A DNA stretch of 64,000 nucleotides from Enterobacteria phage Aplg8. The notes under the pieces were generated by a model, which was not told the DNA's origin, ran no database searches, and saw only the letters and a list, made by a program, of their open reading frames with translations. A program made the position numbers and the translations under genes. Positions 5,699-59,947 of the stretch are shown in pieces. The stretch lies in sequence record NC_054902.1; one strand, 5' to 3'. The first letter of the stretch is position 1. Every line of letters starts with the position of its first letter.

Positions 5699-5726
5699 TT
5701 TCTGTTCCTCCGTAGTTGATAGGGTA

Positions 5727-5756
5727 ATAGTACCACGGAAGAACAGTCTTGTAAAC
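5727..5756 (-). promoter_or_regulatory. early promoter
   Basis: GTTTAC (5756..5751) - 18 bp - TACTAT (5732..5727) on minus strand. Confidence 0.55.
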
Positions 5757-5941
5757 AACTTTTTTAAAAATATTCGTAATAAATGTGAATACCAACTACT
5801 ACCGCTGAAACCTGTGCAACCCACCACGCACAAGCAATAAGTACAGAATTCAAAATTTTCATAATAACCTCATCACAAAAGTAAATGTTAAACAAATTAC
5901 TGGAATACTAATTAACCAAACAAAACACCACCATAGTGAAC

Positions 5942-6205
5942 TCATAACTCAATCTCAGCGATTTTCATTTCATTACTATTAATAGCCGCTTTAAGACTAT
6001 CTGAAAGAATTACATTCCAGTGGTCATTCATATGACCATTAACTAAGCGTGTAATTTCTTCAGGAGTTGAAAAATAAGGCTGATCAGACTCCCAATGCGA
6101 TAATCCTAAGCGAGTATAAATCATGCCTTCATCATCACTAGAATATTCAACTGACACAAACTCATCAGTTATTTTATGTTTAGCGTAATAAAATTTAAAT
6201 TTCAT
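5942..6205 (-). CDS. hypothetical protein
   Basis: 87 aa from MKFKFYYAKHK; upstream part of track ORF is promoter/leader read-through. Confidence 0.5.
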   Translation of the reverse strand: MKFKFYYAKHKITDEFVSVEYSSDDEGMIYTRLGLSHWESDQPYFSTPEEITRLVNGHMNDHWNVILSDSLKAAINSNEMKIAEIEL

Positions 6206-6239
6206 TTTATTCTCCAAATCCGTATCAGTTGATAGTTGT

Positions 6240-6269
6240 ATAGTACCACGGTCCTTGTGGTACGTAAAC
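6240..6269 (-). promoter_or_regulatory. early promoter
   Basis: GTTTAC (6269..6264) - 18 bp - TACTAT (6245..6240); conserved leader CAACTATCAACTGATACGG. Confidence 0.55.
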
Positions 6270-33218: not shown

Positions 33219-33455
33219 TCAAATGCAAGTAGTAATTACTCCAGTAGTGCTTATGCAGGTATTACCCATTTGCACACCTAAAGATCCATTTGTATTCACA
33301 TGAAGATTATCATCAATTTTAACTGATATTTTACCATTAGTGTGAATAACGGTGCTAGATTCAATCACAGGTTGAGTATCATTTTCAACACTAACAAATG
33401 GAACTGCTGCTAATGCAACTAAACAAACTGCTAAGCATCCCATAACAATTTTCAT
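33219..33455 (-). CDS. secreted/membrane-anchored small protein
   Basis: 78 aa from MKIVMGCLAVCLVALAAVPFVSV; N-terminal signal sequence. Confidence 0.5.
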   Translation of the reverse strand: MKIVMGCLAVCLVALAAVPFVSVENDTQPVIESSTVIHTNGKISVKIDDNLHVNTNGSLGVQMGNTCISTTGVITTCI

Positions 33456-33489
33456 TTTATTCTCCAAATCCGTATTAGTTGATAGTTGT

Positions 33490-33519
33490 ATAGTACCATG
33501 GAAGAACAGTCTTGTAAAC
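33490..33519 (-). promoter_or_regulatory. early promoter
   Basis: GTTTAC (33519..33514) - 18 bp - TACTAT (33495..33490); conserved leader. Confidence 0.55.
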
Positions 33520-33599
33520 AGTTTTGTGAAAATTTTTTAGGGAATTCTAAAGGTCCAGAATCATCTGTTTTTCATAAGTATAGATTTATATTACTTGTA

Positions 33600-39740: not shown

Positions 39741-40457
39741 ATGAATTATAAACTAATTTATGAAAAGTTAATCTCTAATGCTAAATCTCGAAAACTTGAT
39801 TGCTATACTGAATCTCATCACATTATACCACGCTGTTTAAATGGCAGCGATGATGCCTCAAACTTAGTAGATTTAACACCAGAAGAGCACTATGTAGCTC
39901 ATCAACTTTTAGTAAAAATTTATCCTTCTGAACCAAAATTAGTCTATGCTGCTAACATGATGACAGTTTCCACGAAATACGCTAAACGTAACAATAAAAC
40001 TTTCGGTTGGATTCGTCGTAAACTCTGGGAAATAGAAAAGAATAAAGAATTCTCCCAGGAGACACGAAAGAAAATGTCTGATGCAGTAGCTAATAAAGCA
40101 AGACTAACTTGTCCACATTGCGGTAAGTCCGGATTAAGCGGGAATATGAATCGATGGCATTTTGATAACTGCCCGAATCACCCTAATCCTAAAGTTAGAC
40201 CACCGATGTCTAAAGAACACAGAAATAATATCTCAAACGGGCTTAAAGCAATCATTCTTGAAGAAACATCCTGCGAATTCTGCGGAATGATAGGCAAGAA
40301 ATGCGTTATCGCAGCGCATAGAAATTTCTGCAAGAAAAATCCAAATGGACGCAAGAAAACTGAAAAGACTGGTACTTGCGTCCATTGTGGTAAAGTTACC
40401 ACTTTCGGAAATTTATCAAGATGGCATAATGATAACTGTAAATATAAACCTAGCTAA
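39741..40457 (+). mobile_element. free-standing HNH homing endonuclease gene (Mob-like), convergent with gene 46
   Basis: 238 aa; HNH motif ESHHIIPRCLNGSDDASNLVDLTPEEHYVAHQ; three C-terminal zinc-ribbon repeats CxxC...RWHxDNC; only long plus-strand ORF among minus-strand early genes. Confidence 0.8.
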
Positions 40458-42138
40458 TCTTAGCTAAACTAAATCTACCAACTTTTTCCATTTGAATATG
40501 CTGACCATATTCTTGTGGGTCATGGTCTTTATGCGAAATTATGAAGAAGTTGGTATCCTTCAAACCATCTAAAATTTTAGCTACATTTTTAATACCTTCA
40601 GCATCAAATGCACCGTCATACACTTCATCAAGAAATAAACAACTTATTTTAACACCTGAAACTTTTTCAGCAATATCACGCCAAGTAAATAAAAGAGCAA
40701 TATCAATTCGTGCTTTTTCACCTTGACTGAATGAAGCATAACTAAAATCTTCACGACCACGGGATTTAATTGTCTCATTAAATTCTTCATCTAATGTAAA
40801 CACATAATCCGCTTCCATTATTTTAAGATAATGGTTAATCTGCTTATTAAATAATGGAATGTACTTTTTAATAATAGCACCTTTAATACCAGAATCTTTG
40901 AGCATATCAGTCAAAATTCCTCGGTGGTATTTTTCCATTACTAAATTAGTTTTTGTCTTAACAATTTTATCAAGTTCTTCTTGAAGCAGTGCTATTTCAT
41001 CAGCATGGTCAATAAACTCAGAAGATGCTTTTTCTATAGCTGCTTTAACTTTTTTAGCTTTATCTACCGTCGTGATTAGAGATTGCTTTTTATTGCGAAT
41101 ATCATTTGCCAACGACTGCTGAGTTTTAATATTATCTCGGTATTCATCAACAAGAACTTTTAAATTATCACGGTGTGTTGAAAGCTGTTCAAACGAATGC
41201 GTACATTCAGAAACTTTATCTTTAATTTTAGAAACAACTTTATCACCGGAACTTAATTGTGACAAGCAGGTTGGACATAATCCACCTTCGTGATACATAT
41301 TAATGACTTTATTATACGAGTCAATTTTTGATTTAATTAAAACTGCTTCTTGACCGATTTTATTAAATGCATCAGTCGGGTCTTCATCCAAAACAATATT
41401 AACTAATCTTTCATTAGCTTCTTCTATTTCCGATTTTAGCGTTCTAGCTTCTTTTGCCAAATCATCATACATATTTTGTAGACGAGTAAGGTTGTCACCC
41501 GTTAATTTTTTCTGGCGTTCAACGTTATCATTATATATTTTAATTTGTTGGATAATACTATCTTTTTTAACATCAAGCACTTGGTTTTGTGAATTTAATT
41601 CACGTATTAGTGCTTTATTAAGCTTATCCATTTCAGCTAATGTTCCTACCTCAAGCAGGTCTTCCACAAGCTTTCTTCGCGCAGGGGTCGACAAACCCAT
41701 GAAAGGGGTATACCCTGCTGTACCAAGGACAACAATCTGCTTGAAACTGGCATATGACATTCCGATAAGCTGTTCAAATTCTGCTTGGAAATCTTTACTG
41801 CTGGCAGATTCATTAAGACGTGTACCGTTAACGGTGATTTCGAAAACGTTTGGTTTTTGTCCTCTTTTGATATAGTACTTTTTCTCATCATATTCCATCC
41901 ACAATTCAACTAAAAGTTCTTTCTTATTTGTGCTGTTTATTAATTGACCTTTCTTTACATCACGAAATGGCTTGCCAAAAAGCCCAAATGTGATGGCTTC
42001 TAACATAGTAGACTTACCACCGCCATTTCGTCCAGTAATAAGAGTTTTTTGAACCTTATCTAATTGAATGTCAACTCCATTTTGACCAACTGACATTATA
42101 TTTTTATATTTTACTCTATTAAGTTTAAATGATTTCAT
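40450..42138 (-). CDS. 46: gp46 recombination nuclease subunit (Rad50/SbcC-like ATPase)
   Basis: 562 aa; Walker A GRNGGGKST, coiled-coil with CPTC zinc hook, signature/Walker B near C-terminus. Confidence 0.92.
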   Translation of the reverse strand: MKSFKLNRVKYKNIMSVGQNGVDIQLDKVQKTLITGRNGGGKSTMLEAITFGLFGKPFRDVKKGQLINSTNKKELLVELWMEYDEKKYYIKRGQKPNVFEITVNGTRLNESASSKDFQAEFEQLIGMSYASFKQIVVLGTAGYTPFMGLSTPARRKLVEDLLEVGTLAEMDKLNKALIRELNSQNQVLDVKKDSIIQQIKIYNDNVERQKKLTGDNLTRLQNMYDDLAKEARTLKSEIEEANERLVNIVLDEDPTDAFNKIGQEAVLIKSKIDSYNKVINMYHEGGLCPTCLSQLSSGDKVVSKIKDKVSECTHSFEQLSTHRDNLKVLVDEYRDNIKTQQSLANDIRNKKQSLITTVDKAKKVKAAIEKASSEFIDHADEIALLQEELDKIVKTKTNLVMEKYHRGILTDMLKDSGIKGAIIKKYIPLFNKQINHYLKIMEADYVFTLDEEFNETIKSRGREDFSYASFSQGEKARIDIALLFTWRDIAEKVSGVKISCLFLDEVYDGAFDAEGIKNVAKILDGLKDTNFFIISHKDHDPQEYGQHIQMEKVGRFSLAKIS

Positions 42139-42153
42139 TTTGTATCCAATTGT

Positions 42154-43008
42154 TCACAATGAAGAAAATTCTTTAACTAAAGCCTGTAATGAAGCCTCTA
42201 TTGGATATCCATTCTTAACTAACATTTTCCTAAACATTACATGTTTAGGACGATTATATGATATCCACAATTCATACAATTTATCTTTATTATCCCAATG
42301 ATAGCCTTTTCGTCGAGATGCTATATGAGCTTTTCTAATCTCCGGATTTTTCCAACTAGCAGCTACTGAATTTGATATAGCTATTTTATATTCAGGTTTT
42401 GATAAAGCAGCACGAACAGCCTTTTGGTGTTTAATTTTATTTTCTTCGTTATTAAACCATTCCCTTGAAGCCATTGAAATTTTTTGTTTTGTTTTAAAAT
42501 TATTTAATCTTTCTTTATTATCTTTCCTATTTTTTGCTACTGAAAAATATTTTAATGCCCTTTCTCTAGCAGCATTTCTATTTTGCGGATTTGAATAATA
42601 CTGTTGAAGCCTTTTTGATATTGTGTCACTTACATCTTGTTTTATAAAACTATATTCAGCAGCTATTAAATCAACTTCGGCTAAAGATAAATTTTTATAT
42701 GTTTTTCCTGACATCATTCTATTTAAAGCATTTAGCATTTTTCCATTTTTACCTTTTGCTAATAAGAAGTGTGCTTTAAAATGATTAAAATGACTTAAAT
42801 TAACTAAATTCCATGTAGATTTTAAATATTCAGGAAATATTGATTTAGGAAGCACGTGGTGTGCTTCCGTTTTACCTGGAGTTTTAACAGTTGAATTCAC
42901 AGAAATAAAATTAATGTAAGACTTGGCGTCTTCTTCACTCAACGCTAATTTTTCAACTAATTCCTTTATTAAAAATTCATCATTAATGTCAAGTTTAAAA
43001 TTCTTCAC
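42154..43008 (-). mobile_element. HNH homing endonuclease gene with NUMOD-like repeats
   Basis: 284 aa; HNH-like TEAHHVLPKS...NLVNLSHFNHFKAH; C-terminal repeated basic helix motifs; inserted between 46 and 47. Confidence 0.7.
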
Positions 43009-43220
43009 AAAAGATTCCTTTTAATGTATCTTTTAGACCATTCTATCATATCATCATAATCTAAAAAGTATTCATCAAATTCAGCCATGCAAACAACGCC
43101 TTGTGCTGTTTTTGATGTAATATAAATTATTCCAACATATCTAGAATCTTCTTCGGTATAATCAATGTTTGCTATGAATTCATCATTAATGTCAAATGTC
43201 GAAAACTTCACAGTATGCAT
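43005..43220 (-). CDS. hypothetical protein (46.1/46.2 position)
   Basis: 71 aa from MHTVKFSTFDINDEF; first codons duplicated at start of the adjacent HNH gene. Confidence 0.45.
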   Translation of the reverse strand: MHTVKFSTFDINDEFIANIDYTEEDSRYVGIIYITSKTAQGVVCMAEFDEYFLDYDDMIEWSKRYIKRNLL

Positions 43221-43455
43221 CCTTAATACAAGATACAGCCATATCTCGTAATGATTTAGGTGTGTCATTATCTAAAATGTTGAAGTTAAAAGATACAGCC
43301 CAGTCAGTGCAGACTGTAACCTTTTTAATACAATTATCTTCAACTTCTAGCGGTTCAAACCAATATTCAATAATTTCTTTATGCCCAATATCATCTTTTA
43401 CTTCGCATTCAAAATGCTGACTCATCATGACATCTTTAAATTCATCAAAAATCAT
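43192..43455 (-). CDS. hypothetical protein (46.1/46.2 position)
   Basis: 87-aa ORF, 4-nt overlap with gene 47. Confidence 0.5.
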   Translation of the reverse strand: MIFDEFKDVMMSQHFECEVKDDIGHKEIIEYWFEPLEVEDNCIKKVTVCTDWAVSFNFNILDNDTPKSLRDMAVSCIKDAYCEVFDI

Positions 43456-44471
43456 TGTGTTGCCTCTACATATAACTGATTTGCATATTGAATAAGTGCT
43501 TCACGATCAGAATCAGTGATGTCTGGAATTGCATTAATGTATTCTTCCATTAACGTCTGAAGAGATTGAACTTCAACTTCTTCACTGTCATCTGACTCGA
43601 CAGAGTTATCAATCTTTGACACAACTCGTAATGAATGCACAACTTTTTCTAGTTCAGATTCGAACTTCGTCAGATTTTTGTCTACCTCAGTTACTATAAC
43701 ACGTACTGATAGATTTGTAAAATCTTTATAGTCAATTTTTCCTTTAAATGGATAATGAATTCTACGATGCCAGGTAGTGTTGTTTGGAATAAATTCCATT
43801 CGTTCTGTTTTTGTATCAAACATCCAGAACCCGCGAGGGTCATTCTCGTCACCTGCAGTTAGTGTCCATGGTGTCCCAATATATCTGACGTTAGCAGCCT
43901 CAGAGATAGTATGGAAGTGACCAGACCACACTTCTTTATAAGTCTTAAGGAAATCAGGTTCAAGACCGTGAGATTTCATTCCTTTATAAAAATAAAATCC
44001 ATTCAGTTCCCAGTGACCAACACAAAAAGAAGCAGAAGAAGTTTTTATGTGCTCGAGAATTTCACCAGTATTTTCTTCACACATCCAAGGAATTAAATCA
44101 ATTAAACATCCGTCAAAATCTACTGTAGTAGGCTTATCATATACTTTAACATTAGGATATTTAGCCAAAAGCTCAGTAGAGGCATTTGGAGTTAAAGTAT
44201 TTTTAAAGTGCATATCATGGTTTCCTACAACAGTATGCAGGGTAATACCAGCATCATCAAGCATTTGAACTATTTCACGAGCGAACTCCATAGTTTTATG
44301 TGTGATTGCTTTTCGCACATCAAAAATATCACCATATTGAATCCAGGTAGTAATTCCATTTTTCTTAGAATATTCTATTGCTTGTTTAATTCCATCTAAC
44401 TGAATGGATTGAACCCACTCATCATCGGCTTTAACGCCTAAATGCCAATCACCTAAATTTAAAATTTTCAT
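43452..44471 (-). CDS. 47: gp47 recombination nuclease subunit (Mre11/SbcD-like)
   Basis: 339 aa (T4 gp47 length); calcineurin-like phosphoesterase motifs (GDWH, GNHD). Confidence 0.92.
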   Translation of the reverse strand: MKILNLGDWHLGVKADDEWVQSIQLDGIKQAIEYSKKNGITTWIQYGDIFDVRKAITHKTMEFAREIVQMLDDAGITLHTVVGNHDMHFKNTLTPNASTELLAKYPNVKVYDKPTTVDFDGCLIDLIPWMCEENTGEILEHIKTSSASFCVGHWELNGFYFYKGMKSHGLEPDFLKTYKEVWSGHFHTISEAANVRYIGTPWTLTAGDENDPRGFWMFDTKTERMEFIPNNTTWHRRIHYPFKGKIDYKDFTNLSVRVIVTEVDKNLTKFESELEKVVHSLRVVSKIDNSVESDDSEEVEVQSLQTLMEEYINAIPDITDSDREALIQYANQLYVEATQ

Positions 44472-59889: not shown

Positions 59890-59917
59890 TTTGTGTTCCT
59901 CCGTAGTTGATAGTTGT

Positions 59918-59947
59918 ATAGTACCACAGAGGAACGGTCTTGTAAAC
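59918..59947 (-). promoter_or_regulatory. early promoter
   Basis: GTTTAC (59947..59942) - 18 bp - TACTAT (59923..59918). Confidence 0.55.

Follow-up and report, generated by a model that had tools for sequence, protein, structure and literature searches.

A 19-bp direct repeat beside gene 46 of a T4-like phage as a probable relic of homing endonuclease settlement

The window analyzed here, 64,000 nucleotides of Enterobacteria phage Aplg8 (sequence record NC_054902.1, positions counted from its first letter), carries the 19-mer AATTCATCATTAATGTCAA in two exact plus-strand copies, at 42974..42992 and 43177..43195, with a spacing of 203 bp. One copy lies in the 5' end of an HNH homing endonuclease gene (HEG) of the Mob type and the other in that of the neighboring gene 46.1. 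The explanation that we prefer, and hold with moderate confidence, is that the repeat is a fossil recombination junction, left as the HEG settled at the boundary between genes 46.1 and 46 by way of a fusion in which codons 1-12 of 46.1 headed the HEG. The original prediction, made from the letters of the window, had reported the pair, translated it as LDINDEF in the HEG and FDINDEF in the neighboring gene, and took it for a scar that recombination or insertion had left in connection with the endonuclease gene. Both the coordinates and the translations proved correct, and the tie to the endonuclease is borne out by related genomes, in which those lacking the HEG hold one copy and those carrying it hold both. 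The features at the center of the argument are the following:

43177..43195, minus strand: resident copy of the 19-mer, nt 17-35, covering codons 6-12 (FDINDEF) of gene 46.1; the sole copy in HEG-less genomes
42974..42992, minus strand: second copy of the 19-mer, nt 17-35, covering codons 6-12 (LDINDEF) of the HEG open reading frame (ORF); found in HEG-positive genomes only
43005..43211, minus strand: gene 46.1 (DUF5487), 68 aa from the GTG at 43211, most likely donor of the copied codons; identified by Pfam and the T4 annotation
42154..43008, minus strand: intact 284-aa ORF of the Mob-type HNH homing endonuclease, with a GTG start at 43008 that overlaps the 46.1 stop (GTGA)

The repeat and the inserted cassette

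The repeat is confirmed as a real feature of the window, neither a product of chance nor a generic motif. No third copy was found in the 64-kb window with up to 3 mismatches allowed, and, while an exact direct 19-mer repeat of any kind arose in 13 of 300 second-order Markov simulations of the window (about 4%), none of the 300 placed the two copies less than 500 bp apart, in line with the earlier expectation that a chance repeat is unlikely. Read on the coding (minus) strand, the 19-mer is TTGACATTAATGATGAATT, and it sets in 16 nt past the start codon in both ORFs; over the first 35 nt in register, the HEG and 46.1 are identical at 29 of 35 positions, and the similarity between the two copies ends abruptly at either side, as at a junction. 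Among 2.9 million contigs of IMG/VR, the 19-mer occurs in 6, of which five are T4-like and hold the single 46.1 copy. The sixth is an unrelated viral contig (L022, IMGVR_UViG_3300037870_000140), in which the single copy, at 5817-5835, supplies the -35 hexamer and the spacer to a perfect TTGACA-N17-TATAAT promoter-like site, a match that is presumably a coincidence.

The window phage is T4-like, a member of Tequatrovirus resembling RB51 and PhiZZ23, and comparison with its congeners delimits an inserted cassette, since the window spans 1801 bp where empty-site genomes span 931 bp and the alignment gap amounts to 870 bp. The cassette occurs in approximately 70 of 517 related Tequatrovirus records, at the identical position and with flanks that are 96-99% identical. 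Its parts and surroundings are as follows:

42121..42990, minus strand: inserted cassette of 870 bp, defined against empty-site genomes and made up of the 46.1-derived 17 nt, the HEG body, its stop, a 15-nt spacer and a replacement gene 46 start
42991..43008, minus strand: ancestral gene 46 start GTGAAGAATTTTAAACTT (MKNFKL), now HEG codons 1-6; upstream member of an 18-bp imperfect direct repeat
42121..42138, minus strand: replacement gene 46 start ATGAAATCATTTAAACTT (MKSFKL), with its ATG at 42138; downstream member of the 18-bp repeat
42139..42153, minus strand: 15-nt spacer ACAATTGGATACAAA, from the HEG stop to the new gene 46 ATG, with a weak GGA Shine-Dalgarno-like element
42075..42121, minus strand: HEG-associated recoded patch, gene 46 nt 18-64 (codons 6-22), encoding ...YKNIMSVGQNGV...
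40450..42138, minus strand: gene 46, a Rad50/SbcC-like recombination endonuclease subunit, pushed 870 bp downstream of its former translation start

The HEG-less genomes T4, PhiZZ30, AR1, RB14 and phiC600P9 have one copy of the 19-mer, in 46.1, as do the five IMG/VR contigs, and none of the HEG-less genomes examined has both. Two perfect copies are present in the window, T6 and RB51; the HEG-side copy differs by a single substitution in T2 (synonymous) and in F26 (Ile to Leu), and the 46.1-side copy by a single synonymous substitution in MLP2. Because HEG-less genomes hold the 46.1 copy alone and HEG-positive genomes hold both, the 46.1 copy is ancestral, and these comparisons argue that the HEG-side copy arrived with or after the HEG and drifts freely. 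The expectation that the single copy of HEG-less relatives would mark the empty site was only half right, as the single copy is there but at a distance of 203 bp from the insertion point, on its upstream side.

The junctions show from where the HEG obtained its start. In T4, PhiZZ30, AR1, RB14 and phiC600P9, GTGAAGAATTTTAAACTT stands, in identical sequence, right after the 46.1 stop as the start of gene 46. The T4 junction, at which the 46.1 stop overlaps the gene 46 start, reads ...AGGAATCTTTTGTGAAGAATTTTAAACTT followed directly by AATAGAGTAAAA..., and the window is identical to T4 as far as AAACTT and then runs into the HEG ORF with GACATTAATGATGAATTTTTAATAAAG...; in general, HEG-less and HEG-positive genomes share the 3' end of 46.1 plus GTGAAGAATTTTAAACTT, which in the latter is followed by GACATTAATG.... 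At the downstream junction of the window, ATGAAATCATTTAAACTT leads into AATAGAG... of gene 46, and the 18-bp repeat that flanks the cassette is identical at 13 of 18 positions, 9 bp of it exactly (TTTAAACTT). Since empty-site genomes have the identical sequence there, the start of the HEG is the ancestral Shine-Dalgarno sequence, GTG and codons 1-6 of gene 46, an initiation region that has stayed unaltered (AAGGA, seven nt and a GTG overlapping the 46.1 stop). In T4, the expression of gene 46 is coupled to the translation of 46.1, and, with the same initiation region now heading the HEG, expression of the latter is presumably coupled to 46.1 translation as well. Gene 46, for its part, is re-equipped with a start codon and spacer brought by the cassette, and we infer that the GGA element of the spacer acts in its translation initiation.

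In consequence, the HEG-side 19-mer is composite: the TT at its head (42991-42992) comes from the old codon 6 of gene 46, and the remaining 17 nt come from the cassette, where they match 46.1 codons 7-12 exactly. The proposal that the endonuclease gene had copied its N-terminus from the resident gene thus holds for codons 7-12, while codons 1-6 (MKNFKL) are gene 46 in place; that the translation start too had been copied from 46.1 is contradicted by the empty-site genomes, in which the Shine-Dalgarno sequence and GTG are gene 46's own. A separate observation concerns the replacement start, the first 15 nt of which, ATGAAATCATTTAAA, recur unchanged in the native gene 46 start of HEG-less Mosigvirus HX01 (L008, 780-797) and may hint at the travel route of the cassette.

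Two other accounts of the locus were considered and rejected. A promoter or terminator explanation fails, as no T4 late promoter (TATAAATA) was found near the locus and sigma-70-like promoter matches there are at background level only. A transposon-style target-site duplication shares with the locus the association of short direct repeats with an inserted mobile gene; however, the 19-mer copies do not flank the insert, one falling within its 5' end and the other in a different gene, 203 bp farther upstream, and the 18-bp repeat that does flank it matches at 13 of 18 positions only, its downstream copy being a diverged allele brought by the cassette, with neither a transposase nor terminal inverted repeats.

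The endonuclease family, its N-termini and the probable target

The ORF is free-standing between 46.1 and 46, neither in an intron nor in an intein, and its protein is identical to P0005 (PhiZZ23 and others). Profile searches matched it to phrog_655 ('homing endonuclease', E=7.8e-45) and phrog_12434 ('HNH endonuclease', E=4.2e-15), and tblastn to T4 MobD (30% identity over residues 47-281, E about 2e-11), to a gene of phage PST annotated mobC (36% identity over residues 30-236, E=1e-21) and to 'MobD-like' genes; sequence searches of Pfam, NCBIfam and the PDB gave nothing significant. H50, H51, N67, H76 and H80 are invariant in the family alignment, and the AlphaFold2 model (predicted local distance difference test score [pLDDT] of 90 overall) has a beta-beta-alpha unit at residues 47-84, with residues 1-9 predicted to be unstructured (pLDDT about 66). 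One result runs counter to the assignment, in that fold searches recovered no HNH structure. Judged by these matches, the protein would be an uncharacterized member of a well-known class, the free-standing Mob-type HNH homing endonucleases of T4-like phages, with an informative junction. A search of the literature found no paper describing this HEG or its junction. As a side observation, a palindrome with a 9-bp stem (GGAAGCACGTGGTGTGCTTCC, 42848..42868) lies exactly over the catalytic E-A-H-H-V-L-P codons and is terminator-like on the noncoding strand.

Not every copy of the gene is whole. The HEG is intact in the window, T6, PhiZZ23 and F26 and frameshifted or split in T2 (L011, P0007), RB51 (L014), RB68 (P0002) and MLP2 (L013), and the frameshifted copies fit the homing endonuclease cycle of invasion, decay and loss. 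Classic laboratory phages thus still carry the gene in decayed form. A variant of 290 aa from Logan contigs (P0017) has a C-terminal frameshift (...EFLHCEQLDTK) that makes its stop overlap the new gene 46 ATG (ATGA), which recreates a coupling akin to the 14-nt overlap between the HEG and gene 46 in Mosigvirus, Gelderlandvirus and the contig L019.

Three other lineages likewise have, in the slot upstream of gene 46, HEGs with 42-45% protein identity to that of the window:

Mosigvirus, HEG-positive: AV112 (L005), F2 and vB_EcoM-172859UKE1
Gelderlandvirus, HEG-positive: UoN_LG358_1, Melville and SEA1 (HEG-positive locus L004; HEG-less comparison loci L009 and L010)
Unclassified Logan contig, HEG-positive: L019

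The left junction of the family is different in every lineage. In HEG-positive Mosigvirus (AV112), 46.1 is missing and the HEG takes its place, keeping codons 1-7 of 46.1; compared with HEG-less HX01, the first 22 nt of 46.1 are common to both (ATGACGAAGACTGATTATGAAA, MTKTDYE), followed by either the HEG or the rest of 46.1. This shared start shows that the HEG family does capture the start of 46.1 and that 46.1::HEG fusions really exist. The HEG of Gelderlandvirus and L019 begins at an ATG or GTG overlapping the gene 47 stop, where HEG-less relatives have a 46.1-like gene or nothing. Taken together, these alignments point to a family that has made use of resident start signals again and again. 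Ahead of the conserved Y-x-(N/E)-F motif, the orthologues have one Met and 19 residues, against 30 residues in the window protein; its 10 additional N-terminal residues roughly equal the 12 codons assigned to genes 46 and 46.1, and the 17 nt coding for DINDEF are absent from the orthologous HEGs of the three other lineages.

The cassette is accompanied by changes in the gene that it displaces. In the patch at gene 46 codons 6-22, HEG-positive Tequatroviruses differ from HEG-less ones of the AR1 type by about 15 clustered substitutions, with two fixed differences at 42075-42076, and in four lineages (Tequatrovirus, Mosigvirus, Gelderlandvirus and L019; loci L004, L005, L008, L009, L010, L015 and L019) the N-terminus of the gene 46 product reads Y(K/S)NIMSVGQ in HEG-positive phages versus YQNIMSVGG in HEG-less congeners. 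A recoded patch shared by HEG-positive phages is the pattern expected of a cleavage-resistant patch that is co-converted with the HEG, and codons about 6-22 of gene 46 in HEG-less alleles are therefore probably the target of the endonuclease, with the cassette carrying a resistant, recoded version; from this comparison, AR1-type alleles are predicted to be sensitive and HEG-positive and T4-type alleles resistant. The last class is the difficulty for this proposal. The Tequatrovirus records fall into about 68 that are HEG-positive, about 361 of the AR1 type with neither HEG nor patch and about 74 of the T4 type, including T4 and PhiZZ30, which lack the HEG yet have the HEG-positive type of patch, differing only at 42075-42076, so that the link between patch and HEG is not absolute. 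Such alleles could have come from co-conversion without acquisition of the HEG or from loss of the HEG between the flanking TTTAAACTT repeats.

Gene 46.1 itself is well defined. It matches PF17589 (DUF5487) with E=2.3e-49 over profile positions 1-66 of 66, is syntenic with T4 46.1 in a conserved position between 46.2 and 46, and begins at the GTG at 43211, the start annotated in T4, the DUF5487 match running from profile position 1. Reading this gene from an ATG farther upstream gives the 71-aa ORF of the original prediction, whereas the annotated start gives 68 aa. All 69 HEG-positive Tequatrovirus records keep 46.1, which is wholly replaced by the HEG in HEG-positive Mosigvirus and Gelderlandvirus and is also absent from STML-198; given this replacement, the gene is dispensable in those two genera. 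The local order, all on the minus strand, is 46, the 284-aa HEG ORF, 46.1, 46.2 and 47, completed by the following:

43192..43455, minus strand: gene 46.2
43452..44471, minus strand: gene 47

Two other repeat families were seen in the window. A GC-rich hairpin, AAAGGGCCGAAGCCCTT(A), occurs in four copies (7136, 38337, 44631 and 48271), one of them directly downstream of an alpha-glucosyltransferase-like ORF adjoining gene 47, and looks like a recurring intrinsic-terminator stem-loop. A dispersed family of 17-27-bp exact repeats (e.g., GTAGTTGATAGTTGTATAGTACCACAG and TTTCATTTTATTCTCCAAATCCGTAT), found at approximately 2396-2432, 5703-5757, 6200-6250, 14194, 33449-33520, 59894-59930 and 61316, may represent recurring promoter or intergenic control sequences of the phage.

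Origin of the second copy

The nucleotides of HEG codons 7-12 are the same as those of 46.1 codons 7-12, with no counterpart in orthologous HEGs, and were thus most likely copied from 46.1. The route that we favor would comprise three steps: (i) the HEG would at first have been present in a Tequatrovirus as an in-frame fusion to 46.1 codons 1-12, the remainder of 46.1 being replaced, in an arrangement comparable to the present Mosigvirus allele (HEG with 46.1 codons 1-7), and the junction of this predicted intermediate would be ACATTTGACATTAATGATGAATTTTTAATAAAGG; (ii) in later homing or repair into a HEG-less genome, the fusion allele would have offered its 46.1-derived start for in-register pairing with a broken end that comprised 46.1 plus 18 nt from the start of gene 46, copying going on from there; and (iii) the product would have 46.1 intact and the HEG in frame behind the gene 46 start, with 17 copied bases left as the second copy of the repeat. 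The two starts that would have paired, GTGAAGAATTTTAAACTT of gene 46 and GTGAAGTTTTCGACATTT of 46.1, agree at 12 of 18 positions, each with TT as its last two bases, and in-register pairing of such similar starts would explain why the 16-nt offset is the same in the HEG and in 46.1. The repeat itself is probably without function.

Several findings weigh against this route, among them that the fusion was not found: (i) the exact pattern of the 46.1(1-12)::HEG junction had no match in IMG/VR, and a HEG-side 30-mer had none in the JGI metagenomes; (ii) a BLAST search with the synthetic junction against 50,697 phage records returned only the two-piece matches of the window type, in all 69 HEG-positive records; (iii) every inspected member of the 90% protein cluster begins MKNFKLD, with no fusion form; (iv) none of seven synthetic fusion proteins was present, by exact look-up, in a collection of 15 billion proteins; and (v) the N-terminal alignment of the orthologues is ambiguous, MAFFT placing DINDEF against IDAET of the Gelderlandvirus HEG, so that part of the copied segment could stand in for a weakly similar native N-terminus instead of lengthening it. 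A search of IMG/VR for related loci with the HEG protein gave nothing usable.

The missing intermediate counts in favor of a one-step origin without any fusion stage, in which the HEG would have come from another phage lineage and been sealed illegitimately at gene 46 codon 6, with 14-17 nt templated from nearby 46.1 by template switching. The lineage-specific left junctions fit illegitimate joining upstream combined with homologous joining in conserved gene 46, and the source of the copied bases is just 203 bp away. However, this account leaves the identical 16-nt offset from the start codon without explanation, and an actual 46.1::HEG fusion stage exists in the sister genus Mosigvirus; we regard it as unlikely, though it deserves to be kept in mind.

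The ambiguous alignment, in turn, is one argument for the segment being native to the HEG, or for chance or convergence in an AT-rich genome with a family N-terminus rich in D, I, N, E and F. MAFFT aligns INDEFLIK of the window with IDAETILK of Gelderlandvirus, MDINF opens a distant paralogue in phage ACG-C40, the HEGs of Gelderlandvirus and L019 likewise have TTGAC after the start codon, and the simulations did produce an exact 19-mer repeat somewhere in the 64-kb window at the low rate given above. We nevertheless consider this improbable: the 19-nt identity is exact, in frame, at the same codon offset and only 203 bp apart, a proximity that none of the simulations reproduced; the orthologous HEGs share no such DNA, the 17-nt segment being absent in three lineages; and the similarity stops abruptly on both sides, in a protein 10 N-terminal residues above the family norm.

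Retention of the repeat for a function, either as a downstream initiation element at two coupled GTG starts or as a repeat pair for reversible deletion of 46.1, is the least probable alternative and a very remote one. It would accord with the shared design of the two starts (AAGGA, 7-8 nt and GTGAAG, each coupled to the stop of the upstream gene), with the in-frame 46.1'::HEG fusion that recombination between the copies would give, and with the two perfect copies retained in the window, T6 and RB51. On the other hand, the point changes of T2, F26 and MLP2 show that either copy tolerates substitution, the RNA around each of the two starts folds no better than shuffled sequence (z-scores of -0.05 to -0.3), orthologous HEGs work without the segment, and no deletion product is found among the 69 HEG-positive records; with background-level folding and tolerated point changes, a functional role is unsupported. 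RNA structures that sequester the start are known for I-TevI, segB and mobE, and a structure hiding the start of the HEG or of 46.1 was rejected on the same folding results.

The fusion route can be extended, more tentatively and at slightly less than even chances, to the family at large. In at least four T4-like lineages, the 5' end of gene 46 would have been the homing site of a single Mob-like HEG family, which each time carried a resistant recoded patch; after each jump between lineages, its upstream side would have been joined illegitimately and in frame to whichever resident start was available (the gene 47 stop/start overlap, 46.1 codon 7 or gene 46 codon 6); the 19-mer would be the sole surviving trace of an extinct Tequatrovirus 46.1::HEG fusion, and N-terminal capture would be a general route to expression for cassettes without initiation signals of their own. 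The gene 46 product belongs to the nuclease by which breaks are processed in homing, of which it is the Rad50-like subunit.

Known systems and significance

The closest parallel in organization is MobE of T4, a free-standing HNH homing endonuclease encoded between nrdA and nrdB (PMC2790892; PMC2988022), whose start codon overlaps the stop of the upstream gene, suggesting translational coupling (PMC2988022). Other free-standing Mob and Seg genes likewise lack a promoter and overlap the gene upstream, to which they may be coupled in translation (PMC2988022; PMC2790892). Both loci consist of a promoter-less, free-standing HNH cassette between two genes of an essential pathway, with a start/stop overlap and variable presence among T-even phages, and, as predicted from sequence comparison, the HEG of the window would target a neighboring conserved gene as MobE does. 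In contrast, MobE has its own N-terminus, whereas the HEG of the window has six codons of the displaced downstream gene and six of the upstream gene, and its cassette, unlike that of MobE, supplies a new start for the gene it displaces.

For mobC and mobD of T4, the activity has not been determined and the targets are unknown (PMC2988022, Table 1). T4 MobD and the PST mobC product share with the HEG of the window the H-H...N...H motif and an N-terminal nuclease followed by long helical repeats, but their sites differ (nrdC.11/mobD.1 or nrdG/nrdD versus 46.1/46), and the HEG is an orthologue of neither, its orthologues being the 'MobD-like' genes (42-45% identity) in the 47/46 slot of Mosigvirus and Gelderlandvirus. 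The Mosigvirus 46.1::HEG allele is of the same family and in the same slot, with the recoded gene 46 patch and a captured resident start; it differs in that the HEG replaces 46.1, for which reason no repeat is left there, while in the window 46.1 is intact and its captured codons stand behind the captured gene 46 start.

Intronless homing with co-conversion of flanking markers is established for SegG (gene 32) and SegF (gene 56) of T4. The patch of the window type similarly travels next to the HEG and differs from HEG-less alleles, the evidence at the window being comparative only.

To conclude, the locus is a natural record, at the level of nucleotides, of how a selfish endonuclease cassette gains expression after invasion: the cassette takes a resident ribosome-binding site, start codon and first codons, the displaced essential gene gets a substitute start, and successive recombination events are readable from short repeats. 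It also offers, in gene 46 codons about 6-22, a concrete candidate target for an uncharacterized enzyme of the Mob family, which T6 and many coliphages that are candidates for therapy have in intact form and T2, RB51 and RB68 in decayed form. Our results bear on annotation as well, since the HEG and gene 46 starts are often miscalled in these genomes, and they indicate that 46.1 is evidently dispensable in Mosigvirus.

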